64,000 bases of DNA, taken from NCBI GenBank assembly GCA_049294075.1, contig JBAQCK010000111.1, forward strand, positions 2,946 to 66,945, read 5' to 3'. Under the pieces are notes generated by a model. It searched no databases, was not told the DNA's origin, and saw nothing but the letters and a program-made list of their open reading frames with translations. Origin of the DNA: Bacteroidales bacterium (GTDB lineage: Bacteria > Bacteroidota > Bacteroidia > Bacteroidales > VadinHA17). The position numbers and the translations under genes were made by a program. Positions 3,090 through 33,689 of this stretch are shown in pieces (positions within the stretch are counted from its first letter, which is position 1; every line of letters starts with the position of its first letter).

Positions 3090-3091
3090 AT

Positions 3092-7882: not shown

Positions 7883-7883
7883 T

Positions 7884-11435: not shown

Positions 11436-11444
11436 ACATAAGCA

Positions 11445-19511: not shown

Positions 19512-19569
19512 AACCCACATGTATCAAATACACAAACACGTATGTATATAAATTTCAAACATGTGGGTT
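19512..19569. repeat. 11-bp perfect inverted repeat (AACCCACATGT / ACATGTGGGTT) with a 36-nt spacer
   Basis: Arms at 19512-19522 and 19559-19569, read directly. The right arm ends 34 nt upstream of the ATG at 19603. Confidence 0.8.
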
Positions 19570-19602
19570 CCATCAGACCTTAAAAATCAAAATTATATAC
19601 TT

Positions 19603-20934: not shown

Positions 20935-22375
20935 CAGGCTTTTAACAGGAGTGTCGGCATTGGTATTTGCCGCGGTACTTGCCTGGTGGCTTGCTGATGA
21001 TCACTATCCGGCCGAAATGAACATGAGGGTCCCGGGTATGGATAACAGACCGAAAATTGAACCGCGGTCGGAGGAAATCATTGTCGGTGAATTCTTCGAC
21101 TCGCTGGGTACGTTTGACGGAATGGTTCCGGGCGAATGGCCAAGGTTCAGGGGTGTCAACTTCGATAATATAGTTAAGGACACCTTTGCAATGGCTGAGT
21201 CATGGGACACTACAGGTCCTCCGGTTATGTGGAAGGTAACTCTCGGCGAGGGCTATGCCGGACCGGCTGTTAAGAACGGAAGGGTCTACGTACTCGATTA
21301 CGACGAAAGAAGAAAAGCGGACGTGCTTCGCTGTTTCTCACTCAAATCTGGTACGGAGCAGTGGCGGAGATGGTATTATGTCGACATGAAGCGTAATCAC
21401 GGCTATTCCCGCACCATACCGGCGGTTACCGATAAATACGTGGTTACAGTAGGACCCAGGTCGCACGTGATGTGCGTCGATCCCGTTTCAGGAGAACTTT
21501 TCTGGACCATCGACATGGAAAAGGAGTTTGGCGTTCCCGGAAGTTCAAAGGGAAAAATCACACCTGATTTCTACTCCGGCCAGTGTCCTCTTATTGATAA
21601 CGATGTTGCAGTGCTTGCTCCCGGCGGAAAAGCCCTGATGATCGGCGTGAATTGTTCTGACGGGGAGATACTGTGGCGCACACCGAACCCCGACTCGCTG
21701 ATGATGTCCCATGGATCTATAATCCCCATGGTGATCCACGGAAGGAAAATGTACGTTTACAATGCTGTTGGAGGCGTTGTAGGCATTGCTGCTGACGGGA
21801 ATGATGTCGGAAGAGTCCTTTGGAAGACAAAGGAATGGAACCCGGCGACAACTGCCGCCTCTCCCCTGTACCTTGGGAATGGCGAAATAGCAGTGTTCGG
21901 AAGCTATGGGGCCGGCGGAGGAAAAATCAGGATTGACTTTGACGGATCAGGATACTCGGTTGCCGTGATAGAAACTCACAAGGCTATGGAAGGTATTTCC
22001 AGCGACCAGCAGACGCCAATTATCACTGGAGATTATGTATGGTCGGTGATGCCTGAGAACGCTGGACCCCTGAAGAAACAGCTTGTTACATACCATAAGT
22101 CCGATCTGAGAACACTCGTATGGAGCAGCGGCAAGGACATGAGATTCGGACGGGGACTCGGACCATTTATAGTAAAGGATGATAAACTGATACTGCTCGA
22201 TGATGATGCAAACCTTTTCATCTTCAGAATCGACGGCTCACAGGCAACCCTGCTTTCACAATTTGACATACTCGACGGAATCGAGGCCTGGGGACCGATG
22301 GCCATAGCAGGAAACTTCCTCATCCTTAGGGATGCAAGAAATATGGTTTGTCTTAATATCGGGAAAGATAGTTAA
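20915..22375 (+). CDS. PQQ-like beta-propeller repeat protein, N-terminal membrane anchor (paralog 3)
   Basis: Track ORF 20894..22375. Possible starts are 20894, 20909 and 20915, and all overlap the upstream gene's end. Anchor LLTGVSALVFAAVLAWWL; EWPRFRGVNFDN...VMWK. Confidence 0.7.
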   Translation: MISRKNNRLLTGVSALVFAAVLAWWLADDHYPAEMNMRVPGMDNRPKIEPRSEEIIVGEFFDSLGTFDGMVPGEWPRFRGVNFDNIVKDTFAMAESWDTTGPPVMWKVTLGEGYAGPAVKNGRVYVLDYDERRKADVLRCFSLKSGTEQWRRWYYVDMKRNHGYSRTIPAVTDKYVVTVGPRSHVMCVDPVSGELFWTIDMEKEFGVPGSSKGKITPDFYSGQCPLIDNDVAVLAPGGKALMIGVNCSDGEILWRTPNPDSLMMSHGSIIPMVIHGRKMYVYNAVGGVVGIAADGNDVGRVLWKTKEWNPATTAASPLYLGNGEIAVFGSYGAGGGKIRIDFDGSGYSVAVIETHKAMEGISSDQQTPIITGDYVWSVMPENAGPLKKQLVTYHKSDLRTLVWSSGKDMRFGRGLGPFIVKDDKLILLDDDANLFIFRIDGSQATLLSQFDILDGIEAWGPMAIAGNFLILRDARNMVCLNIGKDS

Positions 22376-22376
22376 T

Positions 22377-23291
22377 ATGGGAAAGAAACCTGCAGCAATA
22401 TTTTCACTGATCATAATACTTGCCTTCATGGCATACATGATCTATGACGCGACAAGAGGTTCAGGAGGAACTGAGAAGCCGGCAGCAACAACTACCGAGG
22501 AATATGAGGCAGACTGGATTATTGAAAAGATTTACAGCCTGCCGGCAGGATCCCTGACCTCGGTAGCCGTTTCTGAGAACGGAGGGATATTTCTTGGCGG
22601 AGATGCGTTTGTTACCGCCCTGGATCAGAATCTTGACGTACAATGGTCTCTTGAAACTGAAGGAAAGATAACAGCCCTTTCAGTGACGGGTGATACGGTA
22701 TTCGCTGCAACCACAGAGACTATTCTCCTCGTTTCCGCTTTAGGTAAACTGATTACCGAGTGGGGACCTTACGAGGGGAACAGCATTATAACATCAGTGT
22801 CTTCCGGCCCGGAGCTTGTTGCAATTGCTGATGCCGGAAACAAGAGGGTATTTGTTCTCGACAAGGCAGGCGAAGTTCTCAGAATGATGGGTCAGGGAGA
22901 TGAGAAATTTGTCATTCCGAGCGGTTACTTTGATGCTGCCGTGTCGGGCAATCTGGTTTTTGCTGCCAATACAGGCAATAGGAGAATTGAGACCTGGACA
23001 ACTGACGGCAGGAAGACAACTGAATTCGGAGAACCGGGAACAGCCCCCGGTGCGTTCTGCGGATGCTGCAACCCGGCACATTTTGCAGTGATCCCCCAGG
23101 GATTCGTCACTGCTGAAAAGGGAATCAACAGAATCAAAATACTTGACCGTGACGGTAAATTTGTTGAATTCGTTTCAGTGAACAATGAATTCAATCAGTC
23201 GGTCCCGCTTGATGTGGCTTCGGCCGACGGAGTCACTATATATGCTGCAAACAGCTTTGATAATAAACTTTATGTGTTCAAAAGAAAATGA
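22377..23291 (+). CDS. NHL-repeat six-bladed beta-propeller protein, N-terminal membrane anchor
   Basis: ATG at 22377 (MGKKPAAIFSLIIILAFMAYMIY) lies 1 nt after the upstream stop. NHL-like blades: NKRVFVLDKAGEV, NRRIETWTTDGRK, NRIKILDRDGKFV, NKLYVFKRK. Unusual GAFCGCCNPAHFAV motif. Confidence 0.6.
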   Translation: MGKKPAAIFSLIIILAFMAYMIYDATRGSGGTEKPAATTTEEYEADWIIEKIYSLPAGSLTSVAVSENGGIFLGGDAFVTALDQNLDVQWSLETEGKITALSVTGDTVFAATTETILLVSALGKLITEWGPYEGNSIITSVSSGPELVAIADAGNKRVFVLDKAGEVLRMMGQGDEKFVIPSGYFDAAVSGNLVFAANTGNRRIETWTTDGRKTTEFGEPGTAPGAFCGCCNPAHFAVIPQGFVTAEKGINRIKILDRDGKFVEFVSVNNEFNQSVPLDVASADGVTIYAANSFDNKLYVFKRK

Positions 23292-23467
23292 ATAAGTTAA
23301 CCAGACCGGAGTTTTTAAGGAAGCTTGCAAGAAGTCTCTTGCTTGCCTTTCTTGCTTTTCTTGCACTTGCTCTCGGATCACGGACTGTAAGCGGAAAGGA
23401 TTGTTCAACCTGTCCGGGAAAAGGACTCTGTGCCGGAGACAACGACTGCAGTAAATACTCAAAATGA
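23288..23467 (+). CDS. Untracked 59-aa ORF: Tat-like/anchor N-terminus + four-Cys tail
   Basis: My own translation: MNKLTRPEFLRKLARSLLLAFLAFLALALGSRTVSGKDCSTCPGKGLCAGDNDCSKYSK. ATGA overlaps occur at both ends (23288-23291 and 23464-23467). It falls below the 60-aa cut-off of the track. Confidence 0.4.
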   Translation: MNKLTRPEFLRKLARSLLLAFLAFLALALGSRTVSGKDCSTCPGKGLCAGDNDCSKYSK

Positions 23468-24030
23468 TGAATAAAGACAGGAACTTATACCAATCACGAA
23501 GGGATTTTGTCCGGAAAGCCGGCAAATTTCTTGTTGCTGTCCCGGTAATCGGTTTGCCTGTCGTTCTGTCGACCAGGATTACTACCGCGGGAACGGTCTG
23601 GCAGATCGATCCTTACAAATGCAACCAGTGCGGACAGTGCAAGACTCACTGTGTCCTCACTCCTTCGGCCGTCAAATGCATACATAATTTTCAGATGTGC
23701 GGCTATTGCGACCTCTGCGGAGGCTACCTGCGGCAGGGGACAAAAACTATCAACACCGGAGCTGAGAACCAGCTCTGCCCAACTGCTGCAATAACCAGAA
23801 CATTTGTGGAGGAACCTTATTTCCAATACACAATTGATGAAGTTCTTTGCGACGGATGCGGAAAATGTGTAAAAGGATGCAAGGATTTTGGGAATGGTTC
23901 CCTTTACCTGCAGATCGATCAGGATCTGTGCGTGAATTGCAACGAATGTGCTATAGCAAGGAGTTGTCCGTCGGATGCGATTTCCAGGATTTCAGACAAA
24001 GTGCAGTATATTCCAAAAGAAAAGATTTAA
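23464..24030 (+). CDS. Tat-exported multi-cluster ferredoxin (NapG-like)
   Basis: 188 aa. Twin-arginine motif QSRRDFVRKAG plus a hydrophobic stretch. Four Cys groups: CNQCGQCKTHC, CGYCDLCGG...CP, CDGCGKCVKGC, CVNCNECAIARSCP. Confidence 0.75.
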   Translation: MMNKDRNLYQSRRDFVRKAGKFLVAVPVIGLPVVLSTRITTAGTVWQIDPYKCNQCGQCKTHCVLTPSAVKCIHNFQMCGYCDLCGGYLRQGTKTINTGAENQLCPTAAITRTFVEEPYFQYTIDEVLCDGCGKCVKGCKDFGNGSLYLQIDQDLCVNCNECAIARSCPSDAISRISDKVQYIPKEKI

Positions 24031-24036
24031 CTGAAG

Positions 24037-25320
24037 GTGAAAAAGAAATTGCCATATATCCTGTTATTCCTTATGCTTGCATGGCATGCGGTGCTTTTTG
24101 CACAGGAAAGATTTCCAAGGCCGGAGTTTGAATCCGGATATGTTTATCCCGTGCATCAGATGCCCGCTGACAGGGCTCCCATATGGGAATATATCGATCT
24201 CGCAGTGCTTATCGGGGCTCTTTCTGTGGCAGCGTGGCTGGCGCTCAAAAAACGCTCGCGTAATGGACTTTTATGGCTATCAGTATTTTCCCTGGCCTAT
24301 TTCGGATTTTTCAGGGAAGGATGTATATGCTCAGTCGGCTCGGTTCAGAATGTTGCCCTTGCACTTTTCAACGACGGATATTCGATTCCCCTGACTGCTC
24401 TCCTGTTCTTCATGATACCTCTGATCTTTGCACTTTTATTCGGCAGGGTATTCTGTGCGGGGGTCTGCCCTCTTGGCGCCATTCAGGAGCTTGTTGGTTT
24501 CAGAACCGTCAAACTTCCCAGGGTTGTTGAGTCGGTAATGATATCAGTGCCTTTCATTTATCTGGGAATTTCAGTTCTTTCGGCTGCAACTGAAAGCCAG
24601 TTCCTGATATGCCGTTACGATCCCTTTGTAGGCATCTTCAGGCTCGATGCACCGTATACAATGGTGATATTCGGAGGATTGCTGCTTGTCGCGGGGATTT
24701 TCATCAACAGGCCTTATTGCAGGTATTTATGTCCCTATGGTGTTCTACTGAATATATTCTCAAGGTTTTCAAACAAGCATCTTACAATTACACCGGCAGA
24801 ATGCATTAATTGCAGACTGTGCGAGGATGTTTGTCCGTACGATGCCATTCTTCCCTCCGACATAGCCCGTCCCGCGGCGGACCCGGATAAGGAGAGAAAG
24901 CGATTTCTTACATATATATTGCTTGTGCCGTTTTTCGCAGCAGCGGGTGCGATAATTTTCGGAACCCTTTCCCCTGTTTTCACCGGTCTGAACAGTGATG
25001 TCAGGCTGGCCAGGGAAATCAGAGCTGAAGCAGAGAGTGGAATCCCGGCTGTTTCGCTGGCTGCCCAGGGTTTTAAGGAAGCAGGCACAACAGAAGCCGA
25101 ACTGTTTGAAAAGGAAATTAAAATCCATGAGCGGTTCCGGAAGGGCTCCATATGGATGGGATTATTTCTCGGAATATCGTTCGGTCTCAGCCTTGTTTCG
25201 CTGTCAACACGAACCAGAAGAACAGAGTATGTTCCACATAAGGGCAAATGCTACAGTTGTGGAAAATGCTTTCAGTATTGCCCTGTACATTTAAATAAGA
25301 TCAAGAATGATAAAGCTTGA
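24037..25320 (+). CDS. Integral-membrane polyferredoxin (NapH/MauN/NosH-like)
   Basis: 427 aa with multiple TM helices. Paired CxxxCP motifs FCAGVCPLGAIQE and YCRYLCPYGVLL. Ferredoxin motifs CINCRLCEDVCPYDAI and the C-terminal CYSCGKCFQYCP. Confidence 0.75.
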   Translation: MKKKLPYILLFLMLAWHAVLFAQERFPRPEFESGYVYPVHQMPADRAPIWEYIDLAVLIGALSVAAWLALKKRSRNGLLWLSVFSLAYFGFFREGCICSVGSVQNVALALFNDGYSIPLTALLFFMIPLIFALLFGRVFCAGVCPLGAIQELVGFRTVKLPRVVESVMISVPFIYLGISVLSAATESQFLICRYDPFVGIFRLDAPYTMVIFGGLLLVAGIFINRPYCRYLCPYGVLLNIFSRFSNKHLTITPAECINCRLCEDVCPYDAILPSDIARPAADPDKERKRFLTYILLVPFFAAAGAIIFGTLSPVFTGLNSDVRLAREIRAEAESGIPAVSLAAQGFKEAGTTEAELFEKEIKIHERFRKGSIWMGLFLGISFGLSLVSLSTRTRRTEYVPHKGKCYSCGKCFQYCPVHLNKIKNDKA

Positions 25321-27031
25321 AGAAAAGGATCTGAAGATTCTCAGAGGGATAAGCACCGCTGCAGGAATTTTTACCCTCATCGTGGCGCTGACGATGCTTT
25401 TGAGCATTGTCCAGCTGAAGGCTCTCGATCCTCTTGACAATCCCGCAATTGTATCGGTGAAGGAAGAATTTGACAAGGATCATGAAAATGCGGTTAAGGC
25501 GGAACAGGTAAGGGCGCTCGATCTGATGGCCAGGAAGGCCTATTTCTCATCGCGCCGGCAGGTTGAAACGGGTTCCTGGCTGCTGATTGCAGGAGCAGTT
25601 ATATTTGTTCTGTGTCAAAGGCTCATAGCAGGGAGTGAGAAAAATATTCCTTCGGTTCCGGGAGAAAAAACCGATCAGGTCTCGGATAAGGCCCGTTATG
25701 CAAAATACCTTACAGGTACTGTGGCAGTCCTGACTGTGGCTGCAATAATCTCTTCATTCATTCTAAGAAAAGATCTGCCTGACCTGTCAGGAAAACGGAC
25801 TGCAAAGGCAGAAAAGAGCGAGAAGAGGAAAAAGGACAAAGACGCTGCATCAGCTTCAGAGACGGCTGCAGCTTTTTCCCCAGATCCTGTCAACTTTCCC
25901 CATTTCCGCGGTCAGGACGGAAGGGGAATTGCCGGCGGCACTGGTTATCCGGTTGAATGGAATGCCGAAAACGGAACAAATATTAAATGGAAGGCGAGTG
26001 TGCCAAAAAGTGGAAAGAGCTCCCCTGTAATATGGGGCGACAGACTCTTTGTTACCGGCGCTGAAGGCAATGATTGTGAGGTATACTGTCTTGACAAGAA
26101 CACCGGCGATTTGTTATGGACTGCTGCTGCGTCAGGACTTCCCGGTCAGCCCGCCACTTCCCCCGAAACCGACCAAGAAACAGGCATAGCTGCTCCCACA
26201 GCCGCTACCGACGGCAATTCCGTTTGCGCGATCTTTGCAAACGGAAACCTTGTCTGCCTCGATTTTGACGGTAAGCTTAAATGGGGCAAGAATATCGGAA
26301 CTCCGGCTAACGTTTACGGGTATTCATGCTCTGTAATACTTCACGATGGCCTTCTCATAGTCCAGTTCGATTCGGATGAGAAAGTATCGATGATGGGATT
26401 CGACACAGCTACAGGAGATCTTAAATGGGAAACTATCAGGAGAGGCAGATCAACATGGGCTTCGCCTTCGGTGGCGACCTTCAACGGAATAACTCAGATA
26501 CTTATAAACGGCAACCCGGAAGTGGTGGCATTCGATCCGGCCACTGGCAAGGAGCTTTGGGCAATCGAAGTCCTTTCCGGTGATGTAGCCCCTTCGCTTG
26601 CGATAAACAGCACATTTATTTACGCAGTCACTGATTATGCACGACTGGCAGCAGTGAAACCCGGGCCTGGCCCTTCGATAGCCTGGGAAGACAACATGTT
26701 TACATCGGACGTTTCAAGCCCGGTTGCCAGCGAGCAGTATCTTTTTATATCTACCGGTGTAGGCGATGTGGCTTGCTATGATGCTATCAGGGGAGACACT
26801 CTGTGGACTCATTACTTCATGGATCAGTTCTATGCTTCACCGATCATTGCCGATGAGAAGGTATTCCTTCTCGATCGCAGCGGTTTGATGCATATTGTTG
26901 ATGCCGGACCTGAATACAATCTGATTGCCGAATCCCCGATCGGCGAACCTTCAGACTGCACACCGGCATTTTCCGACAAGAATATTTATATCCGTGGTAG
27001 AAACAATATTTTTTGCATTTCACAAAATTGA
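25307..27031 (+). CDS. PQQ-like beta-propeller repeat protein with two N-terminal TM segments and a Lys/Ala-rich linker (paralog 4)
   Basis: 574 aa. TM segments AAGIFTLIVALTMLLSIV and WLLIAGAVIFVL plus VAVLTVAAIISSFIL. Linker KAEKSEKRKKDKDAASASE. NFPHFRGQDGRG...IKWK, then blades. Confidence 0.7.
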   Translation: MIKLEEKDLKILRGISTAAGIFTLIVALTMLLSIVQLKALDPLDNPAIVSVKEEFDKDHENAVKAEQVRALDLMARKAYFSSRRQVETGSWLLIAGAVIFVLCQRLIAGSEKNIPSVPGEKTDQVSDKARYAKYLTGTVAVLTVAAIISSFILRKDLPDLSGKRTAKAEKSEKRKKDKDAASASETAAAFSPDPVNFPHFRGQDGRGIAGGTGYPVEWNAENGTNIKWKASVPKSGKSSPVIWGDRLFVTGAEGNDCEVYCLDKNTGDLLWTAAASGLPGQPATSPETDQETGIAAPTAATDGNSVCAIFANGNLVCLDFDGKLKWGKNIGTPANVYGYSCSVILHDGLLIVQFDSDEKVSMMGFDTATGDLKWETIRRGRSTWASPSVATFNGITQILINGNPEVVAFDPATGKELWAIEVLSGDVAPSLAINSTFIYAVTDYARLAAVKPGPGPSIAWEDNMFTSDVSSPVASEQYLFISTGVGDVACYDAIRGDTLWTHYFMDQFYASPIIADEKVFLLDRSGLMHIVDAGPEYNLIAESPIGEPSDCTPAFSDKNIYIRGRNNIFCISQN

Positions 27032-29448
27032 AAGAGGAAACTAAACATACCAGAACCTGCAACTGCAACTCCGGTGCACTTTCTGTTGAAGAAATTACCT
27101 CGGTGGTTGATGCCGTTGTAAGCGAAACAGGTACCGGAAAGGAAAAAGTGATACTGGTGCTCCAGGAAGTCCAGAAAAGACTTAATTATCTTCCTTCTGA
27201 AGCTCTTAAGCACATCTGCAGGGTGACTGAAATCACGCCCGGACAGATTTCAGGAGTTTCAACATTCTATTCCCAGTTCAGACACATACCGTCAGGGAAA
27301 CACACGATAAAAATCTGCTCCGGGACCGCGTGCCACGTAAAAGGATCGGAGCTGATTTCAGAAGCATTCAAAAGAGATCTCAAGATCACGGAAGAGAGGA
27401 ACAGCTCCCCTGACAATCTCTTTTCGATTGAGGAAGTTGCCTGCCTGGGTTGCTGCACGCTTGCGCCTGTTGTCCAGATAGATGAAAAGACTTACGGGCA
27501 TGTGAAACCTACTGAAGTGATTGAGATTGTCACGGATTTTCTCCACACCGTCGGAAAGCAGAGTGCTCAGAAAAAGGATTCAGTAAAAGAGGAATATGAT
27601 GCCGAAGTCAGGATTGGACTGGGATCTTGTTGTGTTGCTGGCGGAAGCAGGGACGTGCTGGGCAAGCTGCTCGACATAAGAGAATACTATGATCTTAACA
27701 TTAAGGTCAAACCTGTGGGTTGTGTTGGCGTTTGCAACCAGACTCCACTGCTCGAAATTGTATCCGACGGTAAAGGAAGTTCCCGGTACACAAATGTGAA
27801 AAAAGACCAGGTCGAGGAAATTATTCTGAAACATGTCAAGCCAAGGTCATTTGACAAGAAACTGAGATTCAGAATCAATAATTTTGCTGATTCCTTCCTT
27901 TCAGACGATATGGTTTACAGTCCGGTAAATATCCCGGCTGATACCAGGGAAAATACCCTTGATAATTTCCTTAGTACACAGTACCATATTGCCACCATTA
28001 ACGGTGGTGTTATGAGACCTGATTCATACGACGAATATGAGCTTCTCGAAGGATTCAGGGCCATTAAGGCAGTGTTGATGGCCAATAATCCACAGGAGGT
28101 GATTCAGGTTATTACCGAAAGCGGATTAAGAGGCCGGGGAGGAGCAGGATTTCTGACCGGAAAGAAATGGGAAATATCGTCAGGAATGAAGGAGAAGCCC
28201 AAATATGTTGTCTGCAACGGTGACGAAGGTGACCCGGGAGCTTTTATGGACAGGATGATCCTTGAGTCTTTTTCCTTCAGGATTATTGAAGGAATGCTCA
28301 TTGCCGGATTTGCAACCGGAGCCGACCATGGAATCTTCTATATAAGGGCGGAATATCCTCTGGCTGTTTCAAGAGTGAGGAATGCACTGAAAATATGCAA
28401 GGAAAAAGGAATAGTCGGAAAGAACATACTTGGGTCGGATTTTTCATTTGATATAGAGGTGTTTGAAGGTGCAGGGGCTTTTGTGTGCGGTGAGGAAACC
28501 GCACTTATAGCGTCTCTTGAGGGAAAGAGGGGAACTCCCCATCTGAGACCTCCCTATCCTGCAGTGAAGGGCTACAATGGCCGTCCAACGCTTGTCAACA
28601 ATGTGGAGACGCTTTCACTTGTGCCCTGGATAATCAATAACGGCTCCGGTAAATTCAGCGATATCGGAACAGAAAAAAGCAAGGGAACCAAAGTGTTTGC
28701 ACTCGCCGGCAAAGTTGCCAGGGGCGGACTCATTGAGGTTCCGATGGGTACAACAATCCGGGATATTGTAGAAAAGATCGGACACGGAGTTTTGGAGGGA
28801 AGGACTTTCAAGGCTGTTCAGATCGGAGGACCTTCAGGCGGATGCATCCCGGAAAGTCTTGCCGACACTCCTGTCGATTATGAGGAACTTACGCGACTTG
28901 GGGCCATGATGGGTTCAGGCGGAATGGTTGTTCTGGACGATACCGACTGCATGGTAGACATGGCAAGATACTTCCTTGAATTCACCCATAAGCAGTCGTG
29001 CGGGAAATGCACTTACTGCCGTGTGGGAACAAAGCAGATGCTTGAGATACTTACAAGGCTTACTCAGGGCAAAGCCACTATTGCAGAACTGGATGAACTG
29101 GAAAAACTATGCCATGATGTCAGTAAGGGAAGCCTTTGCGGACTCGGGAAAACAGCTCCGAACCCCGTAATAACCGGACTGAGATACTTCAGGGAAGAAT
29201 ATGAAGCCCACACCCGGGGAATATGCCCCTCAAAGAGATGCAGGGATCTTGTTAAATATGAAATTACCGACAAGTGCACGGGATGCACGAAATGTGCACA
29301 GGACTGTCCGGTTGACGCTATTCCCTTCAAACCATACGAAAAACACCAGATTGATCAACTGCTCTGTACCAAATGCGACAACTGCAGGATTGTTTGTCCG
29401 GAAAACGCCATTGAACTAGTTTATGTAAAAGATGAAGATCATAATTGA
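27013..29448 (+). CDS. Fused NuoE-like [2Fe-2S] + thioredoxin-like FeS + NuoF-like (FMN/NADH, 4Fe-4S) + 2x[4Fe-4S] ferredoxin protein
   Basis: 811 aa. CSGTACHVKG...CLGCCTLAPV (NuoE type). LGSCCVAGG...VGCVGVCNQTP (second thioredoxin-like domain). GRGGAGFLTGKKWE, CNGDEGDPGAF and GAGAFVCGEETALI (NuoF type). SCGKCTYCRVG...CGLG. C-terminal CTGCTKCAQDCP and CTKCDNCRIVCP. The start is uncertain: TTG at 27013, or TTG at 27028 overlapping the upstream TGA. Confidence 0.85.
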   Translation: MHFTKLKEETKHTRTCNCNSGALSVEEITSVVDAVVSETGTGKEKVILVLQEVQKRLNYLPSEALKHICRVTEITPGQISGVSTFYSQFRHIPSGKHTIKICSGTACHVKGSELISEAFKRDLKITEERNSSPDNLFSIEEVACLGCCTLAPVVQIDEKTYGHVKPTEVIEIVTDFLHTVGKQSAQKKDSVKEEYDAEVRIGLGSCCVAGGSRDVLGKLLDIREYYDLNIKVKPVGCVGVCNQTPLLEIVSDGKGSSRYTNVKKDQVEEIILKHVKPRSFDKKLRFRINNFADSFLSDDMVYSPVNIPADTRENTLDNFLSTQYHIATINGGVMRPDSYDEYELLEGFRAIKAVLMANNPQEVIQVITESGLRGRGGAGFLTGKKWEISSGMKEKPKYVVCNGDEGDPGAFMDRMILESFSFRIIEGMLIAGFATGADHGIFYIRAEYPLAVSRVRNALKICKEKGIVGKNILGSDFSFDIEVFEGAGAFVCGEETALIASLEGKRGTPHLRPPYPAVKGYNGRPTLVNNVETLSLVPWIINNGSGKFSDIGTEKSKGTKVFALAGKVARGGLIEVPMGTTIRDIVEKIGHGVLEGRTFKAVQIGGPSGGCIPESLADTPVDYEELTRLGAMMGSGGMVVLDDTDCMVDMARYFLEFTHKQSCGKCTYCRVGTKQMLEILTRLTQGKATIAELDELEKLCHDVSKGSLCGLGKTAPNPVITGLRYFREEYEAHTRGICPSKRCRDLVKYEITDKCTGCTKCAQDCPVDAIPFKPYEKHQIDQLLCTKCDNCRIVCPENAIELVYVKDEDHN

Positions 29449-30499
29449 CAATACAGAAGTCGAGGTAAAAGAGGGCCAGACCATCCTTGAAGCGGCACAC
29501 ATTGCAGGAAAAGATATACCTACTCTGTGCCACAGGGACGGTGTGGAACACTATTCTTCATGCATGGTTTGCATGGTGAGGGACAGGAAGAAGAACAATT
29601 TCATACCCTCATGCTCGGCTCTTGTACAGGAAGGAATGGACATAGACGCTTCTGGCGAAGAGGTTGTCAGCCTGAGAAAAAAGGCTGTCACCCTACTGCT
29701 TTCCGAACACAGGGCTGAATGCGAGGCACAATGCCGGATTGTTTGCCCCATGGGATACAACATACCTCTGATGAACAGGCTCCTCATTGCAGGGGAACAC
29801 GAAGAGGCTGCTGAACTTATAAGGTCCGAAATGAATGGTGGCGAACTGAATTGTTTTACCTGCAAAGCTTTTTGTGAGAATGCCTGCAGAAGAAAGAAGA
29901 TTGACACTCCGGTCTCTATCCGGAACATCAGGATTTTTATTAGCAGGAATCTGCCACAGACAGCAAAATATAAGGTTTCTCCTTTCTATTCAAACAGTGA
30001 CATCAAAAAAAGGTTCTCTTCAAGAATAGGTTCACTAAACGAAAAGGAGCAGCTTGAATGGGTGAAGGAATGCCCTGATGATATCAGGCGTAACAGGGGA
30101 ATTGCCGATTATGCGTCTGCTTCTGAAGAAGCAGTAAGTTGTATGCATTGCGACTGCAGGGCTGCCAGCGAATGCAGGTTAAGGGACCTGGCTGAGAAGT
30201 TTTCACTTAAGGACCCGAAGGGGAAATTCGTCAACGCCCCGGTGGCAAAAAAGATAAACAAAAAAACCGGCCTGATTTTTGAAAATGCCAAGTGTATAAA
30301 GTGCGGACTTTGTGTAAGGGTAGTGGAAGATTCAACTGACGCGCCGGCGTTCTGCTTCATCAACAGGGGATTCGTTTCGGTCATTTCGGAGCCTCTCACT
30401 GTTGAATACGCTGATATACCGGCTTCCGTAGCAAAAAAATGCGCTGAGGTTTGCCCTACAGGAGCGCTGGCATTTATGAACAATGACAACGGAACATGA
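29432..30499 (+). CDS. All-iron-sulfur protein: NuoG/HydA-type N-terminal [2Fe-2S] + GltD-type FeS domain + C-terminal 4Fe-4S motifs; no catalytic domain
   Basis: 355 aa. MKIIIDNTEVEV...TLCH..SSCMVCMV...PSC (2Fe-2S). SEHRAECEAQCRIVCP. GEHEEAAELIRSEMNGGELNCFTCKAFCENACRR resembles the GltD/NfnB N-terminal FeS domain. CMHCDC, CIKCGLCVRV and CAEVCPTGAL follow. Confidence 0.75.
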   Translation: MKIIIDNTEVEVKEGQTILEAAHIAGKDIPTLCHRDGVEHYSSCMVCMVRDRKKNNFIPSCSALVQEGMDIDASGEEVVSLRKKAVTLLLSEHRAECEAQCRIVCPMGYNIPLMNRLLIAGEHEEAAELIRSEMNGGELNCFTCKAFCENACRRKKIDTPVSIRNIRIFISRNLPQTAKYKVSPFYSNSDIKKRFSSRIGSLNEKEQLEWVKECPDDIRRNRGIADYASASEEAVSCMHCDCRAASECRLRDLAEKFSLKDPKGKFVNAPVAKKINKKTGLIFENAKCIKCGLCVRVVEDSTDAPAFCFINRGFVSVISEPLTVEYADIPASVAKKCAEVCPTGALAFMNNDNGT

Positions 30500-31614
30500 A
30501 ATATATATTTTCCATATCACTTTTTATTCTTTCATTCACTCTGGAAGGATTTGCGCAGACTTCTGACCAGGAGTGGACAATATTCAGAGGAAAACCAGAC
30601 CTGACAGGAAATACAACAATTGACGTTTCAGCCAAACCATCGCTGATCTGGAGCCTGCCTGCTACAGGCAGGACAAAATCGTCGCCCGTGGTCAGCAGCG
30701 GATTGATATTCTTTGGCAACGATAAGGGTACGGTGATGGCAGTGGGGACAGACGGCAGGATAAAATGGAGTTATGAAGGTGGCTCGCCTGCCGAAGCGCC
30801 TCCGATGGTGTACGACGACAAGGTGATTATAGGATTAAATGACGGATCCCTTCATGCCATAAATAAGTCCAGCGGAAAATTAGCCTGGAAATACAAGACT
30901 GATGGGCAGATAGCAGGTTCGGCAAATGCCTGGTCGACAGGAAAAAGATCCGGAATTGTAATTGGCAGTTATGATTATTACCTGCATTCCGTTGACCCTT
31001 CGAACGGATTGCTTCAATGGAAGCTCGAAACAATGAATTATGTCAACGGCACCCCGGCCGTCACTAACAATAATATCGTTTTCGGTGGTTGCGACGGATT
31101 CATCAGAATTGTTGACGCCTATTCAGGAAGAGAAAAAGATACAATTGAGATAGGTACCTATATTGCTTCCTCTCCTGCCCTTTCAGGCGGGAAAGCATGC
31201 TTCGGCGACTATGACGGCAATTTTTTCTGTGTTGATCTGCTCAGCGGAAAACTGGCCTGGGAAGTTCCCGCAGGTGAAACATCCGGATCGGTTGTGGCAA
31301 TACCTGCAATAGGAAGGAATTCAGTTATCATTGGCAACGAGGATAAATACCTTTACAGCTATGACATTATTACCGGGAAGCTTAACTGGAAATTCCGTAC
31401 CAACGGAAGAATTACCGGTTCAGCTGTAATCACGCCCTCCAAAGTACTTTTCGGAAGTGTCGATGGCAATGTTTATTTGCTCGGCTTGAATGACGGCAAA
31501 AAGATATGGAGCTTCAACGCGGGTTCTCCCGTCAGCAGCACACCGGCAGTAACAGGCGACATGTTTTACATCCTGACGGAGGACGGACGTTTGCTTGCTT
31601 TTGGAACCAGATAA
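30496..31614 (+). CDS. PQQ-like beta-propeller repeat protein, signal peptide (paralog 5)
   Basis: 372 aa. ATGA overlap with the upstream gene. Signal peptide ...LEGFAQ. EWTIFRGKPDLTG...LIWS. Regular G.V...D.G.L.A.....G...W blades. Confidence 0.75.
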   Translation: MKYIFSISLFILSFTLEGFAQTSDQEWTIFRGKPDLTGNTTIDVSAKPSLIWSLPATGRTKSSPVVSSGLIFFGNDKGTVMAVGTDGRIKWSYEGGSPAEAPPMVYDDKVIIGLNDGSLHAINKSSGKLAWKYKTDGQIAGSANAWSTGKRSGIVIGSYDYYLHSVDPSNGLLQWKLETMNYVNGTPAVTNNNIVFGGCDGFIRIVDAYSGREKDTIEIGTYIASSPALSGGKACFGDYDGNFFCVDLLSGKLAWEVPAGETSGSVVAIPAIGRNSVIIGNEDKYLYSYDIITGKLNWKFRTNGRITGSAVITPSKVLFGSVDGNVYLLGLNDGKKIWSFNAGSPVSSTPAVTGDMFYILTEDGRLLAFGTR

Positions 31615-31709: not shown

Positions 31710-33005
31710 ATGAAGATAGTCTATTTGATAACCGGATCGGGCGGATCCTTTTATTGCGGAAATTGTTACCGCGACATGCTCTATGTCCGTGCCATCAGGA
31801 AGGTTCCGGGAATAAAGGCAAGCGCCATACCCCTTTACCTTCCGCCAGACAAGACAACGGGCAGTGAAAGCGGATTTGACAAAAATGTTTTCTTCGGAGC
31901 AATTTCAATGTTTCTGAGGGAAAAAGTCCCTTTCCTCAGAAATATGCCTGCTTTTTTTGATAAATTCCTTGATTCAAAACTGTTTCTCCGCTTTGCAGCA
32001 AAACAGGCAGGAACAACAAGTACCGAAGGTTACGAGGAGCTTACCATAAGCATGATCGAGGGCGACAATGCATTTCGGAAGGCCGAAGTTGACAGGCTGG
32101 TCAGATACCTCACCAAAGACGGGAAACCAGATATAATCCATCTTTCAAATGCCCTCATCCTTGGAATTGCCCGTCAGCTGAAAAAGAGAATTGATGTAAA
32201 GGTTGTGTGCTCCCTTCTGAACGAGGATGACTGGATTGATGACATGGAGGAGCCTTTCCGTTCAAGAGCCTGGAAGATGATTGCCAAAGAGGCAGGATAT
32301 GTCGATTTGTTTGTTACTCCAAGCAGTTATTACCGCGAACTGTTTAAAAGCAAGACAGGTCTTAAGGGTGAAAACGTACACGTGGTTCCCCTTGGCTTTG
32401 ATCCTGAAAAAGACGAAATGTCAAGGACTGACAGAGAACCTTCTTCAATAGGTTTTTTCAGCCGCATAAGCAATTATAACGGCATTGACAAACTTGTTGA
32501 TGCTTTCATTGAAATGAAAAAGCAGGATCAGGTTCCGGGACTGTCGCTGAAGATATGCGGGGGCTACACAGGGGTTGACAAGGAGTTCATTTCAGCCCAG
32601 ATTAAAAAAATCAGGGAAAACAAACTGGAGAAGTCAGTGAAGATTTACCCTGAATTTGAAGGCGATAAAAAGCTTGAATTCTTCAGGGATGTTGATGTTA
32701 TTAGCGTACCTGTCAGAAAATATGATGGTTACGGATTGTATCTTCTTGAGGCGAATGCCTCGGGAATCCCAGTTGTCCAGCCGGCAACGGGAGCTTTCCC
32801 TGAGATAATTGAAAGAACAGGCGGAGGAATAATCTACTCCCCAGATACGGTCAGCGAACTGGCTGACAACCTTACGAAGTTGCTGAAGGACAAGAAAAAG
32901 CTTGCAAGCCTTGGAGAAAAGGGCAGCCGCATGGTAAGAGAGGAGTTATCGCTCGCCAAAATGTCGGCCGGACTCGGGGAAATTTATAATAAAGCCATGT
33001 TATAA
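31710..33005 (+). CDS. Glycosyltransferase, GT4 (GT-B fold) family
   Basis: 431 aa. The C-terminal half has the GT4 pattern (...SVPVRKYDGYGLYLLEANASGIPVVQPATGAFPEII). The N-terminus carries CGNCYRD. The stop overlaps the next gene's start (TAATG). Confidence 0.8.
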   Translation: MKIVYLITGSGGSFYCGNCYRDMLYVRAIRKVPGIKASAIPLYLPPDKTTGSESGFDKNVFFGAISMFLREKVPFLRNMPAFFDKFLDSKLFLRFAAKQAGTTSTEGYEELTISMIEGDNAFRKAEVDRLVRYLTKDGKPDIIHLSNALILGIARQLKKRIDVKVVCSLLNEDDWIDDMEEPFRSRAWKMIAKEAGYVDLFVTPSSYYRELFKSKTGLKGENVHVVPLGFDPEKDEMSRTDREPSSIGFFSRISNYNGIDKLVDAFIEMKKQDQVPGLSLKICGGYTGVDKEFISAQIKKIRENKLEKSVKIYPEFEGDKKLEFFRDVDVISVPVRKYDGYGLYLLEANASGIPVVQPATGAFPEIIERTGGGIIYSPDTVSELADNLTKLLKDKKKLASLGEKGSRMVREELSLAKMSAGLGEIYNKAML

Positions 33006-33679
33006 TGCTTACACTGAATAATATCTCAAAATCGTTCCGCCAGCGCGGTGTTGTATTAAAGGACCTGGATCTTACCGTAAACGAGGGCGACACGGTTTCC
33101 GTTTCGGGTCCTTCGGGTTCCGGAAAGACAACCTTGCTTAACATCATCGGATTGCTCGACAGGCCCGACAGCGGAGAAGTATTTTTCAGGGGTCAGAATG
33201 TGCTCGGGTACAATCAGGACGAATCAGCTTTATACCGGAACAAAAATATAGGCTTCGTTTTTCAGGATCACTTGCTTCTGCCCTATCTGACCGTTCTGGA
33301 AAACATCCTGCTCCCGCTCCTTGCTTCAAAAACCTCTGACCAGGATTACAGGCAGAAAGCTGATGAGGCCCGAAGAATGATGGAAAAAACAGGAATAACC
33401 GGAATCGGATCCAAATTCCCGTATCAGATATCCGGAGGTGAAGCTCAGAGGGCTACACTTGTCAGGGCCCTTGTTAACCAGCCCTCTGTTCTGCTGGCAG
33501 ATGAACCAACCGGTTCACTCGACAGGCGGAATGCAGAGAACCTTGGAGACCTTCTTACAGGCATGAACGGGGAATACGGCACCACTTTGATCCTGGCCAC
33601 ACACTCACAGGAACTGGCCGACAGAATGAAGGTTCATTATAGTCTTTCAGAAGGTAAACTGACCGATGGGAAACACTGA
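33005..33679 (+). CDS. ABC transporter ATP-binding protein (MacB/LolD type)
   Basis: 224 aa. Walker A GPSGSGKTT, signature ISGGEAQR, Walker B VLLADEPTGSLD, H-loop ATHS. Confidence 0.9.
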   Translation: MLTLNNISKSFRQRGVVLKDLDLTVNEGDTVSVSGPSGSGKTTLLNIIGLLDRPDSGEVFFRGQNVLGYNQDESALYRNKNIGFVFQDHLLLPYLTVLENILLPLLASKTSDQDYRQKADEARRMMEKTGITGIGSKFPYQISGGEAQRATLVRALVNQPSVLLADEPTGSLDRRNAENLGDLLTGMNGEYGTTLILATHSQELADRMKVHYSLSEGKLTDGKH

Positions 33680-33689
33680 TAATTGAAAA

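Follow-up and report, generated by a model that had tools for sequence, protein, structure and literature searches.

Two adjacent genes in the Bacteroidales DNA analysed here, one for an 811-aa NuoE-NuoF fusion and one for a 355-aa iron-sulfur protein, probably encode the redox head, on the cytoplasmic side, of an iron-sulfur electron chain that spans the membrane, a reading to which we assign a probability of about 0.6. Taken together, the wire formed by the smaller protein, a membrane Fe-S protein, an exported ferredoxin and a series of propellers suggest an undescribed transmembrane electron passage, and no published description of this gene cluster was found in the literature. Within the window (the whole stretch of 64,000 nucleotides that was analysed), overlaps between cluster genes measure 4–19 nt. 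The features referred to below are as follows.

10629..16871, + strand: accessory set for a 4Fe-4S protein, a radical SAM protein, a DUF116-polyprenyl synthetase fusion, a prenyltransferase-like and a squalene-hopene-cyclase-like protein (Pfam)
19561..23291, + strand: three TM-anchored extracytoplasmic propellers, PQQ457, PQQ493 and NHL319
23464..24030, + strand: Tat-signal ferredoxin of NapG-like design (188 aa), with the motif SRRDFVRK and 16–17 invariant Cys for four predicted 4Fe-4S clusters
24037..25320, + strand: NapH-like, polytopic membrane protein with Fe-S motifs, proposed as partner of the wire (Pfam Fer4_5, alignment, hydropathy)
25307..27031, + strand: membrane-anchored (3 TM) PQQ_2 beta-propeller, overlapping the NapH-like gene by 14 nt and the NuoEF fusion gene by 19 nt
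27013..29448, + strand: 811-aa BfuC-BfuB fusion, TTG start (Pfam, NCBIfam, PDB sequence search)
29432..30499, + strand: 355-aa relative of BfuA with FeS clusters only (five predicted), a 'mini StnA/NfnA'
30496..31614, + strand: signal-peptide PQQ_2/Beta-prop_ACSF4 propeller, overlapping the 355-aa gene by 4 nt, with invariant G197 G198 C199 D200 G201
31710..36956, + strand: conserved cluster tail of a GT4 glycosyltransferase (invariant C16, C19 and C167), an ABC ATPase and a 1088-aa FtsX-type permease

The NuoEF fusion

Both ORFs lie where a preliminary description made from the DNA letters had placed them (27013–29448 and 29432–30499, + strand), and the motif strings that it quoted are present in the translations. 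The domain string that it proposed for the larger ORF, consisting of NuoE, a second thioredoxin-like domain, the NuoF core and two ferredoxin motifs, was recovered with Pfam and NCBIfam. By its domain matches, the 811-aa protein is a NuoE/HydC-NuoF/HydB fusion whose C-terminal two-cluster ferredoxin domain defines the BfuBC core of bifurcating enzymes. Its parts are:

about aa 34–175: NuoE/HydC domain
about aa 198–808: BfuB part, which opens with a 2Fe-2S domain of thioredoxin-like type and continues through the FMN/NADH core and the 4Fe-4S region known from NuoF to a 2x[4Fe-4S] ferredoxin domain at the C-terminus

The Bfu family is defined by sets of BfuB and BfuC domains and by a BfuA with at least one 2Fe-2S and one 4Fe-4S ferredoxin-type domain (PMC9304861). 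The defining BfuC domain, the NuoE-like 2Fe-2S_thioredx (PF01257/IPR002023), was matched at aa 34–175 with 158.4 bits. From the BfuB set, Pfam placed the Nuo51 FMN-binding domain Complex1_51K (PF01512/IPR011538) at aa 367–538 (145.5 bits, cut-off 31.2), the NuoF 4Fe-4S region NADH_4Fe-4S (PF10589/IPR019575) at aa 649–733 (111.4 bits) and the C-terminal 4Fe-4S dicluster (IPR017896) at aa 750–802, the last through Fer4, Fer4_7 and Fer4_21. The SLBB match (PF10531/IPR019554, aa 562–609) reached 25.5 bits (E 1.2e-5), below the cut-off of 27, and the region is alignable throughout with solved BfuB chains. The second thioredoxin-like 2Fe-2S domain was located at aa 206–278 by NCBIfam. In the PDB sequence search, the check for the nearest characterised homologues that had been proposed earlier returned StnABC and NfnABC as top matches: StnB (8oh5_B) scored 677 bits and Csac NfnB (9bov_B) 654 bits, residues 7–600 of the 602 of NfnB 9n5u_B matched query residues 199–808, and HydB chains followed at 541–589 bits. 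As a module of the bifurcating (Bfu) kind, the pair probably uses reduced ferredoxin as a substrate in addition to NADH; we infer its bifurcating behaviour from domain content alone.

The five-cluster wire protein

By alignment and cluster ligands, the 355-aa protein is a BfuA relative that keeps the five-cluster electron path alone, and its nearest solved relatives are StnA and NfnA. The predicted ligands are:

C33, C44, C47, C61: 2Fe-2S cluster
C97, C101, C105, C141, C144, C148, C152: two GltD-type 4Fe-4S clusters
C237, C240, C242, C248: 4Fe-4S cluster of the NuoG N5 kind
C288, C291, C294, C341: 4Fe-4S cluster of the NuoG N4 kind

These cysteine sets are invariant, or nearly so, in an alignment of 28 relatives with 32–80% identity. 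Pfam detected the two domain types by which a BfuA is recognised, Fer2_4 for the 2Fe-2S cluster (aa 3–72, 55 bits) and the GltD/DPD-type two-cluster domain Fer4_20 for the 4Fe-4S clusters (aa 96–172, 29.1 bits, cut-off 25.8); Fer4_Nqo3 (aa 285–346) gave 26.4 bits against a cut-off of 27, and no further Pfam domain was matched. For both proteins of the pair, the first matches are the same solved complexes, namely StnABC (8oh5), Csac NfnABC (9bov) and T. sibiricus NfnABC (9n5u), and the fold search agrees. When aligned with StnA, query residues 3–172 correspond to 6–175 and residues 230–346 to 555–671, so that the flavin part of StnA (176–554) is skipped. The combination of NuoG-type and GltD-type domains noted in the preliminary description is borne out by Fer2_4 and Fer4_20, but it is not a new mosaic: it is the StnA/NfnA architecture minus the flavin part.

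The AlphaFold2 model (pLDDT 89.7, pTM 0.84) is covered by StnA and NfnA, with Foldseek TM-scores of 0.68–0.72 normalised to the query; this comparison left no unexplained folded domain, and the linker at 173–236 is modelled as short helices only. The claim that the protein has no catalytic domain held up when a cryptic one was sought by HMM scans, in the model and by Foldseek: Pfam, NCBIfam, the AlphaFold2 model and Foldseek revealed no FAD, NAD(P)H, H-cluster (Fe_hyd_lg_C) or molybdopterin domain, and neither Pyr_redox nor NAD_binding was matched in Pfam or NCBIfam. The Fdh/NuoG-like C-terminal domain with clusters A4 and A5 is absent from the translation and from the Pfam matches, the protein stopping 14 residues past C341.

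Most relatives of the wire protein still contain the FAD domain, and their linkers measure 212–303 aa versus 82 aa in the 355-aa protein; one relative in the representative library (P0246) has a URO-D-like domain instead. Using the A7 ligand set of Nfn/Stn as reference (Csac C108, C147, C151 and K170), the 355-aa protein keeps C105, C144 and C148, has Arg instead of Lys and carries the additional C141. The lysine is found in 46 of 50 FAD-bearing relatives and in both Nfn-type outgroups, and the same position in 95 flavin-less forms is occupied by R (34), Q (25), K (13) and others. Position 141 is Cys in 92/95 flavin-less forms and Gly in 48/50 FAD-bearing forms and both outgroups. The loss of Lys together with the new Cys shows that the terminus of the wire was remodelled along with the loss of the flavin. 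The A subunit has been trimmed stepwise from a full transhydrogenase subunit, via an FAD-only form, down to a wire of just five clusters whose last one is remodelled, a series that offers a natural minimal model of BfuA electron hand-off. In relatives with an FAD domain beside the terminal cluster, electrons may leave through the flavin, and a protein other than the NapH-like one could be the partner.

Membrane and extracytoplasmic neighbours

The NapH-like neighbour reported in the preliminary description is real, with a Fer4_5 match of 60.4 bits. A hydropathy scan indicates a signal-like N-terminus and about 7 TM segments. Two CX3CP and two CxxCxxCxxxCP motifs show no variation across 28 orthologues, the latter pair being assigned to the cytoplasm, and invariant C96, C98 and C192 lie in loops that are periplasmic by our topology reading. 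The NCBIfam NapH models scored well under their cut-offs (TIGR02163, 52.6 versus 213.05; NF007013, 49.1 versus 234). In the 188-aa Tat ferredoxin, R12, R13, F15 and all Cys are conserved in 85 orthologues, and no NapG or MauM model of NCBIfam matched it at E <= 0.001.

Among the propellers, PQQ493 is the most conserved; it carries invariant His/Cys/Met motifs, and its nearest solved fold is tetrathionate hydrolase. The NHL319 propeller has an invariant C245-C246 pair, and no PQQ-dehydrogenase signature above cut-offs was detected in the propellers with Pfam or NCBIfam. At one metagenome locus (L180), the NapH-like protein carries the 3-TM domain of the anchored propeller as a C-terminal fusion. 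The accessory gene set adjoins the cluster in two further loci (L190 and L142), and the cyclase-like protein occurs in 14 of the 251 genomes of the order sample, with a NapH-type gene in 14/14.

Conservation and modularity of the gene pair

The orphan state of the pair is not accidental. Where enough flank was available, the gene immediately upstream of the wire gene is the NuoEF fusion in 68/68 Bacteroidales loci and 37/38 metagenome loci. Genes for the NapH-like protein, the NapG-like protein and the anchored propeller were each found upstream in all 56 genome loci, and in 25, 24 and 24 of 27 metagenome loci, respectively. Wire orthologues almost always follow the NuoEF fusion and precede a propeller gene, with the NapG-like and NapH-like genes further upstream. 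An even sample of the order contained a cluster-type BfuA in 42 of 45 NapH-type-positive genomes and in 0 of 206 NapH-type-negative genomes, and all 42 carriers have a NapH-type protein; the BfuA relative was not found in the NapH-type-positive G382, G401 and G430, all of them fragmented assemblies.

Three species of the same genus (G001, G008 and G023) possess the cluster except for precisely these two genes, which makes the pair a detachable module; these species offer a ready-made comparison. Since the cluster functions there in the absence of the pair, their NapH-like protein must have another electron source, possibly menaquinol. In G039, the pair is flanked by a transposase and a restriction-modification system on a short contig, with the NapH-type gene on another contig, and locus L169 contains the fusion and the BfuA relative with no NapH-like gene within 10 kb upstream.

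Other possible partners in the genome

That no hydrogenase or formate dehydrogenase partners the pair, as claimed earlier, agrees with its orthologues, which are not beside either enzyme. The genome encodes three [FeFe]-hydrogenases, each with its own HydB and HydC, and the H-cluster domain is present in all three HydA paralogues. It also encodes Rnf, and the organism is of the fermenter type. The sole molybdopterin ORF of the genome is at the end of another contig (C110) and not beside a NuoEF gene, and no other partner for the pair was found in this genome. Pfam detected no molybdopterin protein among the scanned window genes, which thus lack the NapAB that accompanies NapGH, and no FMN-binding domain or flavinylation gene among the scanned cluster genes; nor is there a nitrate, nitrite or N2O reductase at the cluster. 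Two VitK2_biosynth matches (futalosine pathway) and two UbiA-family matches were obtained in the genome, which leave room for a route through quinone. MenA and MenB were not found in the genome, and the futalosine route probably replaces them.

Proposed electron chain and alternatives

In the chain that we propose, the BfuC-BfuB core of the 811-aa protein would bind FMN and exchange hydride with NAD(H), and its C-terminal two-cluster domain would probably exchange electrons with ferredoxin. The solved Nfn path runs FAD-A7-A6-A3-A2-A1-[B1-FMN-C1]-B3-B4 (PMC11829005), and the 355-aa wire would represent its A1-A2-A3-A6-A7 portion in NfnA/StnA, with the FAD and NADPH domains that end the path gone. 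Homology to the solved BfuABC complexes suggests that the two proteins form a complex. The exposed terminal cluster of the wire may pass electrons to, or receive them from, the two cytoplasmic 4Fe-4S clusters of the NapH-like protein, through which electrons would cross the membrane to the Tat-exported four-cluster ferredoxin and then the extracytoplasmic propellers. To our knowledge, the mechanism by which electrons cross a NapH-type protein is known for no member of the family. NapH-like proteins have been proposed to act as modules that serve periplasmic enzymes, NirS, ExaA, NosZ and PceA among them, by carrying electrons across the membrane (PMC8238504). The likeliest direction would be outward, NADH and reduced ferredoxin supplying low-potential electrons to a periplasmic reductase; the label 'NADH input' used in the preliminary description presumes a direction that can here be called no more than likely.

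A wider reading, conceivable if on the unlikely side, makes the pair the input head of a new class of respiratory-type machine with an all-iron-sulfur path to propeller enzymes. A confurcating flavoenzyme of the Bfu type would draw jointly on NADH and reduced ferredoxin and push electrons at about -400 mV along the five-cluster wire, the NapH-like protein and the four-cluster Tat ferredoxin, with no haem and no obligatory quinone, and the end point would be cofactor-poor beta-propeller enzymes outside the inner membrane. Some lineages would tie this system to a dedicated polyprenyl/cyclase gene set. The invariant motifs of PQQ493 and its nearest solved fold, tetrathionate hydrolase, would fit a reductase of S-S (or similar) bonds, acting as an electron sink of fermenters.

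The proposed chain could also run in reverse, with the propellers oxidising a periplasmic substrate and electrons passing inwards via the NapG-like protein, the NapH-like protein and the wire to BfuBC, which would bifurcate them to NAD+ and ferredoxin. No sequence feature fixes the direction, Bfu enzymes are reversible and often use their third substrate as donor in characterised members (PMC9304861; PMC11829005), and NapH-like modules adjoin not only reductases but also periplasmic oxidases such as ExaA (PMC8238504). We nevertheless consider inward flow improbable: by our own reasoning, NAD+ and ferredoxin would require a donor with a midpoint potential near -400 mV, for which few periplasmic substrates qualify, the propellers show no PQQ-dehydrogenase signature above cut-offs, and an organism of the fermenter type, which has Rnf and three [FeFe]-hydrogenases, needs sinks more than additional reductant.

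The NapH proteins of E. coli and Wolinella are considered menaquinol dehydrogenases. It is quite unlikely, in our estimate, that the pair is the soluble arm of an NADH (and ferredoxin):menaquinone reductase with its quinone site in the NapH-like protein, the NapG-like and NapH-like proteins separately acting as a quinol dehydrogenase as in NapGH, with no direct wire. NapH equivalog scores of 49–53 bits against cut-offs of 213–234 identify the NapH-like protein as a distant relative, it has invariant Cys on both faces, and the missing MenA and MenB also count against a quinone link, with the reservation that the futalosine route probably substitutes for them. The NapH-like protein nevertheless retains the CX3CP motifs, NapH has been called a putative quinone-binding subunit (PMC8238504), Schut et al. 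predicted a quinone-reducing Nuo-Bfu (PMC9304861), the genome has the VitK2_biosynth and UbiA matches, and the trimmed clusters without the pair need a donor from the membrane pool. A soluble Bfu-type enzyme that has as third substrate a diffusible redox protein or small molecule without relation to the neighbouring genes, and whose gene position reflects co-regulation or history only, would be consistent with the separate contig in G039, with locus L169 and with the URO-D-like domain of P0246; near-perfect synteny and co-occurrence, the overlaps of start and stop codons within the window and the fact that the two genes were lost together while the remaining cluster stayed intact make it very improbable.

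Relation to known systems

The best sequence and fold matches to both proteins are StnABC/NfnABC (Nfn-Bfu; 8oh5, 9bov, 9n5u/9n5v), whose BC core carries the same cofactor domains, and the 355-aa protein shares with StnA/NfnA the order of 2Fe-2S domain, GltD-type two-cluster domain and two NuoG-type clusters. Unlike in these complexes, BfuC and BfuB are fused, the 355-aa protein is without the FAD, NADPH and Fdh-like domains (the last with two dead-end clusters), its terminal cluster no longer has the lysine ligand and C141 is new, and the genes adjoin those of membrane and periplasmic proteins, whereas the StnABC/NfnABC genes stand alone. As in HydABC and other Bfu enzymes, the defining BfuB and BfuC domains are present, SLBB as a match below its cut-off, and the BfuA relative has the 2Fe-2S and 4Fe-4S domains that are the minimum for this subunit (PMC9304861); unlike HydABC, the pair has no H-cluster, and it resembles those Bfu types in which catalysis resides in further subunits (PMC11829005). 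Bfu enzymes have so far been known as soluble three-substrate machines or predicted heads of Mbh-/Nuo-type proton pumps, and the third 'substrate' here seems to be a NapH-type membrane protein. In the main text of Schut et al. 2022, Mbh-Bfu and Nuo-Bfu are the only membrane-bound forms named, and 'NapH' does not appear (PMC9304861).

The cluster also resembles NapGH, NosGH, MauMN and the 'NapH-like systems' of Meheust et al. 2021, which combine a CX3CP membrane protein with an exported redox protein and periplasmic beta-propellers and share the proposed role in transmembrane electron transfer (PMC8238504). The membrane subunit has two CX3CP and two 4Fe-4S motifs, and the soluble subunit a Tat signal and four 4Fe-4S motifs, as in NapGH; unlike NapGH-type pairs, the scanned cluster genes contain no FMN-binding domain, flavinylation gene or nitrate, nitrite or N2O reductase, and the NapH cut-offs are not reached. 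Where that survey deals with cytoplasmic NuoF-type input, it reports it only for MsrQ-like systems (PMC8238504). The cluster would make it possible to test whether iron-sulfur clusters can by themselves carry electrons across a membrane, and it is a candidate electron sink for uncultured fermenting Bacteroidales.

With NuoEFG of complex I, the pair shares the fold and cluster motifs of NuoE, NuoF and the N-terminal part of NuoG. It differs in its additional Bfu-type domains, in having no adjacent nuo genes and in the GltD-type cluster domain that NuoG lacks, and the 811-aa protein scored 451.3 bits against the cut-off of 558.65 of the NCBIfam model for NuoF of complex I (TIGR01959). The titles of related genome records name digesters, sediments and peat as habitats.

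Domain structure of the gene pair

The source genome (3.87 Mb in 200 contigs, 97% complete by marker genes) holds the window as part of contig C111; its close public relatives are uncultured Bacteroidales MAGs, some of them labelled Rikenellaceae. The two genes analysed here, defined by ORF calling, sit inside a plus-strand gene run (19561-36956) in which neighbours overlap or lie a few bases apart.

27013-29448, + strand, BfuC-BfuB fusion of 811 aa, TTG start
29432-30499, + strand, FeS-only BfuA relative of 355 aa

The pair overlaps by 17 nt. Upstream, the gene for the NapH-like membrane protein overlaps that for the anchored propeller by 14 nt, and the latter overlaps the fusion gene by 19 nt; the 355-aa gene overlaps the next propeller gene by 4 nt. 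A scan of the window for promoters and terminators was uninformative, with 33 promoter-like sites where 26.4 were expected and 24 terminator-like sites where 17.5 were expected.

The preliminary description had read the larger ORF as NuoE, NuoF and ferredoxin domains strung together, and Pfam and NCBIfam matches confirm all of them in one 811-aa protein.

Domain matches in the 811-aa protein
Residues 34-175, NuoE-type thioredoxin-like 2Fe-2S domain (Pfam)
Residues 206-278, second 2Fe-2S ferredoxin-like domain (NCBIfam)
Residues 367-538, Nuo51 FMN-binding domain (Pfam)
Residues 562-609, SLBB, weak match of 25.5 bits against a cut-off of 27 (Pfam)
Residues 649-733, NuoF 4Fe-4S region (Pfam)
Residues 750-802, two-cluster ferredoxin domain (Pfam)

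When the 811-aa protein was searched against PDB sequences, the top score went to StnB from Sporomusa ovata (8oh5_B, 677 bits). Next came the NfnB chains from Thermococcus sibiricus (9n5u_B, 669 bits; query residues 199-808 aligned with 7-600 of its 602) and Caldicellulosiruptor saccharolyticus (9bov_B, 654 bits), against 541-589 bits for HydB chains and about 340 bits or less for complex I NuoF. The domain matches and the alignment to solved BfuB chains together identify residues 1-197 as a predicted BfuC and residues 198-808 as a predicted complete BfuB. The definition of the BfuBC core given by Schut et al. (PMC9304861) uses this same domain set, and apart from a borderline SLBB score the pair agrees with the domain definition of the Bfu family. 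In nearly all related loci with a complete copy, the fusion falls into a length class of 776-827 aa.

Domain matches in the 355-aa protein (Pfam)
Residues 3-72, Fer2_4
Residues 96-172, Fer4_20
Residues 285-346, Fer4_Nqo3, 26.4 bits against a cut-off of 27

Pfam detected nothing beyond these three, and the mixture of NuoG-type and GltD-type FeS domains noticed earlier is borne out, with Fer4_Nqo3 just under its cut-off. The top NCBIfam model, PRK12814 ('putative NADPH-dependent glutamate synthase small subunit'), matched over the first 174 of its 657 positions only. The closest solved relatives are StnA (8oh5_C, 1172 aa), C. saccharolyticus NfnA (9bov_A, 1178 aa) and T. sibiricus NfnA (9n5u_A, 963 aa), each of which aligns in two stretches (for StnA, query 3-172 with residues 6-175 and query 230-346 with residues 555-671). 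This two-stretch alignment identifies the 355-aa protein, as far as sequence can, as StnA/NfnA lacking both its flavin part (residues ~176-554) and its Fdh-like C-terminal half. An AlphaFold2 model built with 28 relatives (pLDDT 89.7, pTM 0.84) left no unexplained domain over, and Foldseek placed the same three Stn/Nfn complexes first (E 2e-15 to 1e-12, query-normalised TM-score 0.68-0.72), with HydA, NuoG and FdsA chains at about 0.5. A cryptic catalytic domain is ruled out by Pfam, NCBIfam, the predicted model and the fold search, in agreement with the earlier reading that the protein has none. The search for nearest characterised homologues, proposed at that time as a check, returned the StnABC/NfnABC complexes first for both proteins of the pair.

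In C. saccharolyticus NfnABC, electrons are described as following the path FAD-A7-A6-A3-A2-A1-[B1-FMN-C1]-B3-B4; A1 is a 2Fe-2S cluster, A7 is bound by C108, C147, C151 and K170, and the clusters A4 and A5, which lie in the Fdh-like domain, are a dead-end branch (PMC11829005). Aligning 28 flavin-less relatives (32-80% identity to the 355-aa protein) showed four groups of invariant or nearly invariant cysteines: C33, C44, C47 and C61; C97, C101, C105, C144, C148 and C152; C237, C240, C242 and C248; and C288, C291, C294 and C341. These would suffice for five clusters, the count of A1, A2, A3, A6 and A7 in the Nfn path; the matching of individual motifs to A2 and A3 we infer from the NuoG pattern.

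Gene neighbourhood and distribution

Window proteins were compared with all locus ORFs by phmmer, counting loci with enough flank among the best 80 of 208 relatives in genomes and the best 80 of 498 in metagenomes, the latter search having been made with a 7-row alignment.

Genes neighbouring relatives of the 355-aa protein (loci with the gene/loci counted)
NuoEF fusion, directly upstream: genome loci 68/68, metagenome loci 37/38
NapH-like, upstream: genome loci 56/56, metagenome loci 25/27
NapG-like, upstream: genome loci 56/56, metagenome loci 24/27
Anchored propeller, upstream: genome loci 56/56, metagenome loci 24/27
Propeller, downstream: genome loci 63/65, metagenome loci 28/36
GT4 gene, downstream: genome loci 63/65, metagenome loci 23/36

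Among the exceptions, L143 has the NapG/H-like genes inverted and on the opposite flank, no such gene lies within 10 kb in L169, L126 lacks a NapG-like match and L180 lacks a separate anchored propeller; no propeller or GT4 gene lies within 3.5 kb downstream in L142, L149, L177, L187, L194, L143 and L180. According to tblastn, six congeneric genomes and one genome from another family share this gene order. The GT4 glycosyltransferase of the window (31710-33005) carries three invariant cysteines (C16, C19 and C167), which is unusual for its family.

At E <= 1e-40, the NapH-like protein was found in none of 300 other genomes of an even phylum sample and in 45 of 251 genomes (this one included; 37 of 183 genera) of an even order sample. 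The 355-aa protein matched 44 genomes of the order sample at E <= 1e-30; two of the matches are Nfn-type proteins of 1219 and 1240 aa, and the other 42 genomes all belong to the 45 with the NapH-type gene, counts that are non-independent since the genomes are related. In the remaining three (G382, G401 and G430, assemblies of 320-800 contigs) a BfuA relative was not found.

The window also carries a terpene-like gene set, assigned by Pfam.

10629-16871, + strand, five genes: 4Fe-4S protein, radical SAM protein, DUF116-polyprenyl synthetase fusion, prenyltransferase-like protein and squalene-hopene-cyclase-like protein without signal peptide

Of the 251 genomes of the order sample, 14 encode the cyclase-like protein; all 14 have the NapH-type gene, and none of the 206 NapH-type-negative genomes encodes it. 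Its gene lies ~6-8 kb from the NapH-type gene in four genomes (G511, G342, G479 and G568) and adjoins the cluster in L190 and L142.

The pair as a detachable module

Of 24 other genomes of the genus, 19 encode an intact full-length homologue of the 355-aa protein. No homologue was found in G001, G008 and G023 (97-100% complete), which retain the NapH-type and PQQ493-type genes. Their loci (L200, L202 and L201) read PQQ457-PQQ493-(NHL)-NapG-NapH-anchored propeller-PQQ372-GT4-ABC-FtsX, and in L200 the gap between anchored propeller and PQQ372 is ~60 nt, so that exactly the NuoEF fusion and the 355-aa gene are missing from otherwise intact clusters. In the last two congeners, G004 and G024, the copies are interrupted by stop codons. 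The entire G004 cluster (L203, G004:C4:574000-593999) is split into many reading-frame pieces; as that genome comes in five contigs, long-read indel errors are as likely an explanation as decay. The copy in G024 has five stops, and NapH-type and PQQ493-type genes were not found in that genome.

Loss of the flavin domain

A search of 1.84 billion representative proteins with the 355-aa protein gave 7320 matches at E <= 0.001, 522 of them at E <= 1e-30, and the best 150 of the 7320 fall into two size classes (~350 aa and ~485-540 aa). The longer class has one Rossmann domain (NAD_binding_8, partial Pyr_redox_2). Alignment with two Nfn-type proteins from related genomes identifies it as the FAD-binding domain (GxGxxG and subsequent motifs) and shows that the inserted NADPH-binding domain is absent. 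Scoring 160 loci by the CRR-to-CxxCxC distance separated the forms cleanly: the spacing was 78-125 aa in 88 loci and 212-303 aa in 34, with 23 unscorable and 15 lacking a strong match.

Residues at the terminal cluster were counted in 145 complete proteins (50 long, 95 short), with two Nfn-type outgroups tallied separately. Position 167, corresponding to the A7 lysine ligand, is Lys in 46/50 long forms and both outgroups; the 95 short forms have R (34), Q (25), K (13) and others. Position 141 is Cys in 92/95 short forms and Gly in 48/50 long forms and both outgroups, and position 164 is Cys in 47/50 long forms and Arg in 79/95 short forms. These changes suggest that the terminal cluster was rebuilt alongside flavin loss and is probably all-cysteine.

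For a tree (IQ-TREE quick mode, LG+G4), 147 complete proteins were reduced to 108 rows by removing those >80% identical, and linker columns were dropped. Rooted on the two Nfn-type proteins, long forms are basal. The free tree needs four changes of form, at least two of them forced by well-supported branches; a single origin of short forms stays unrejected by the AU test (p-AU 0.32), so repeated independent loss was dropped as a firm claim and we speak of one or more losses of the FAD domain. The BfuA relative on one contig labelled Chloroflexota (L085, JBLNAO010000360.1) nests in the Bacteroidales clade beside L077 with branch lengths of 0.09, probably through a binning error and not transfer.

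Candidate membrane and extracytoplasmic partners

The NapH-like protein has a signal-like N-terminus and ~7 hydrophobic segments in a hydropathy scan, and does not reach the cut-offs of the NCBIfam NapH models. Across 28 orthologues, two CX3CP motifs (C140/C144 and C228/C232) and two CxxCxxCxxxCP motifs (C256-C266 and C405-C415) are invariant, as are C96, C98 and C192. Our topology reading puts both CxxCxxCxxxCP motifs in the cytoplasm and the last three cysteines in periplasmic loops. The 188-aa Tat ferredoxin has a twin-arginine motif and 16-17 invariant cysteines. In L180 (L180:5535-7589), the NapH-like C-terminus is fused to a three-helix membrane domain like that of the anchored propeller, but lacking the propeller itself, which argues that the NapH-like protein and the anchored propeller sit together, the propeller facing outward. 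One representative-library protein (P0149, 867 aa) joins a long-form BfuA, a hydrophobic segment and a PQQ372-like propeller, and could be either a genuine fusion or an artefact of gene calling.

Of the propellers in the cluster, PQQ493 (20894-22375) shows the strongest conservation. Among its invariant motifs are N168-H169-G170, V192 and C194, Q230-C231, and M271 and H273; H191 and M193 are nearly invariant, and all five cysteines are kept at 94% or more, which suggests a candidate metal or redox-active site. Its model (pLDDT 87.1) matched tetrathionate hydrolase (E 2e-16, TMq 0.52-0.56) about as well as BamB, and an Atlas look-up returned only BamB-like/PQQ_2 clusters. The tetrathionate hydrolase match was rejected as a guide to function, as it is no better than that to BamB and reflects a generic eight-bladed propeller. 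The NHL-type propeller (22332-23291) has an invariant vicinal cysteine pair (G244 C245 C246 x P248).

Proposed electron path and alternatives

By homology with solved BfuABC complexes, the 811-aa and 355-aa proteins would form one complex with A1 facing B1. Since the far end has no flavin or other catalytic site, the terminal cluster would have to exchange electrons, given or taken, with another protein. Only two conserved candidates have redox centres in the cytoplasm, namely the NapH-like protein and, in some lineages, the small 4Fe-4S protein from the terpene-like set. We propose, with a probability of about 0.6, a chain that links NAD(H)/ferredoxin through BfuBC and the five-cluster protein to the NapH-like protein, the Tat ferredoxin and the propellers, whatever its direction. 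Outward flow is the likelier direction; inward flow through the same chain seems improbable. A quinone-linked arrangement, which we consider just as doubtful, draws support from the trimmed clusters that lack the pair and from futalosine-pathway and UbiA matches, on which the idea of an organism without quinones was rejected; MenA and MenB were not found in the genome. That the pair is an unrelated soluble enzyme is the least probable arrangement, and very unlikely.

The genome has five Complex1_51K loci, namely RnfC, three [FeFe]-hydrogenase sets and the fusion, which shares 46%, 40% and 40% identity with the three HydB/NuoF paralogues. Each hydrogenase set has its own HydB and HydC. The sole other Fer4_20 protein is GltD, adjoining GltB, and the sole Molybdopterin ORF follows an aldo-keto-reductase-like gene at the end of contig C110. 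On these data, a partner hydrogenase or FDH elsewhere in the genome without its own BC core was rejected. The earlier view that the pair has no hydrogenase or FDH partner holds in genome and metagenome loci, where relatives of the 355-aa protein adjoin NuoEF fusion, NapG/H-like and propeller genes.

The pair, judged by its domains, is neither a hydrogenase nor complex I, and lacks three of the defining features of Nfn/Stn transhydrogenases. Mbh-Bfu and Nuo-Bfu are the only membrane-bound forms named in passages of Schut et al., where 17 BfuB clades carry no assignment (PMC9304861); in passages of Meheust et al., NapH-like modules have flavinylated partners, and NuoF-like inputs are reported for MsrQ-like systems only (PMC8238504). 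Searches of freely accessible full texts found no description of the cluster; such clusters may be listed in the supplementary tables of PMC9304861 and PMC8238504. The analysis adds a precise placement of the 355-aa protein on the Nfn electron path, a series running from Nfn-type through FAD-only to flavin-less forms, the apparent ligand switch at the terminal cluster and three congeners that cleanly lack the pair.

Other observations

Directly after one HydCBA set of this genome (L115, G000:C21:6971-8932), a 653-aa protein combines an [FeFe]-hydrogenase-like domain with a histidine kinase (HisKA, HATPase_c), an arrangement that resembles a sensory hydrogenase. Another representative-library protein, P0246, joins a long-form BfuA to a C-terminal URO-D-like domain. 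At the start of the window, a radical SAM/SPASM protein with a SEC-C motif (9-1337) resembles an anaerobic sulfatase-maturating enzyme; it is followed at 1527-9314 by five tandem sulfatase genes, opposite to it in strand, and then a phosphotriesterase-family gene.
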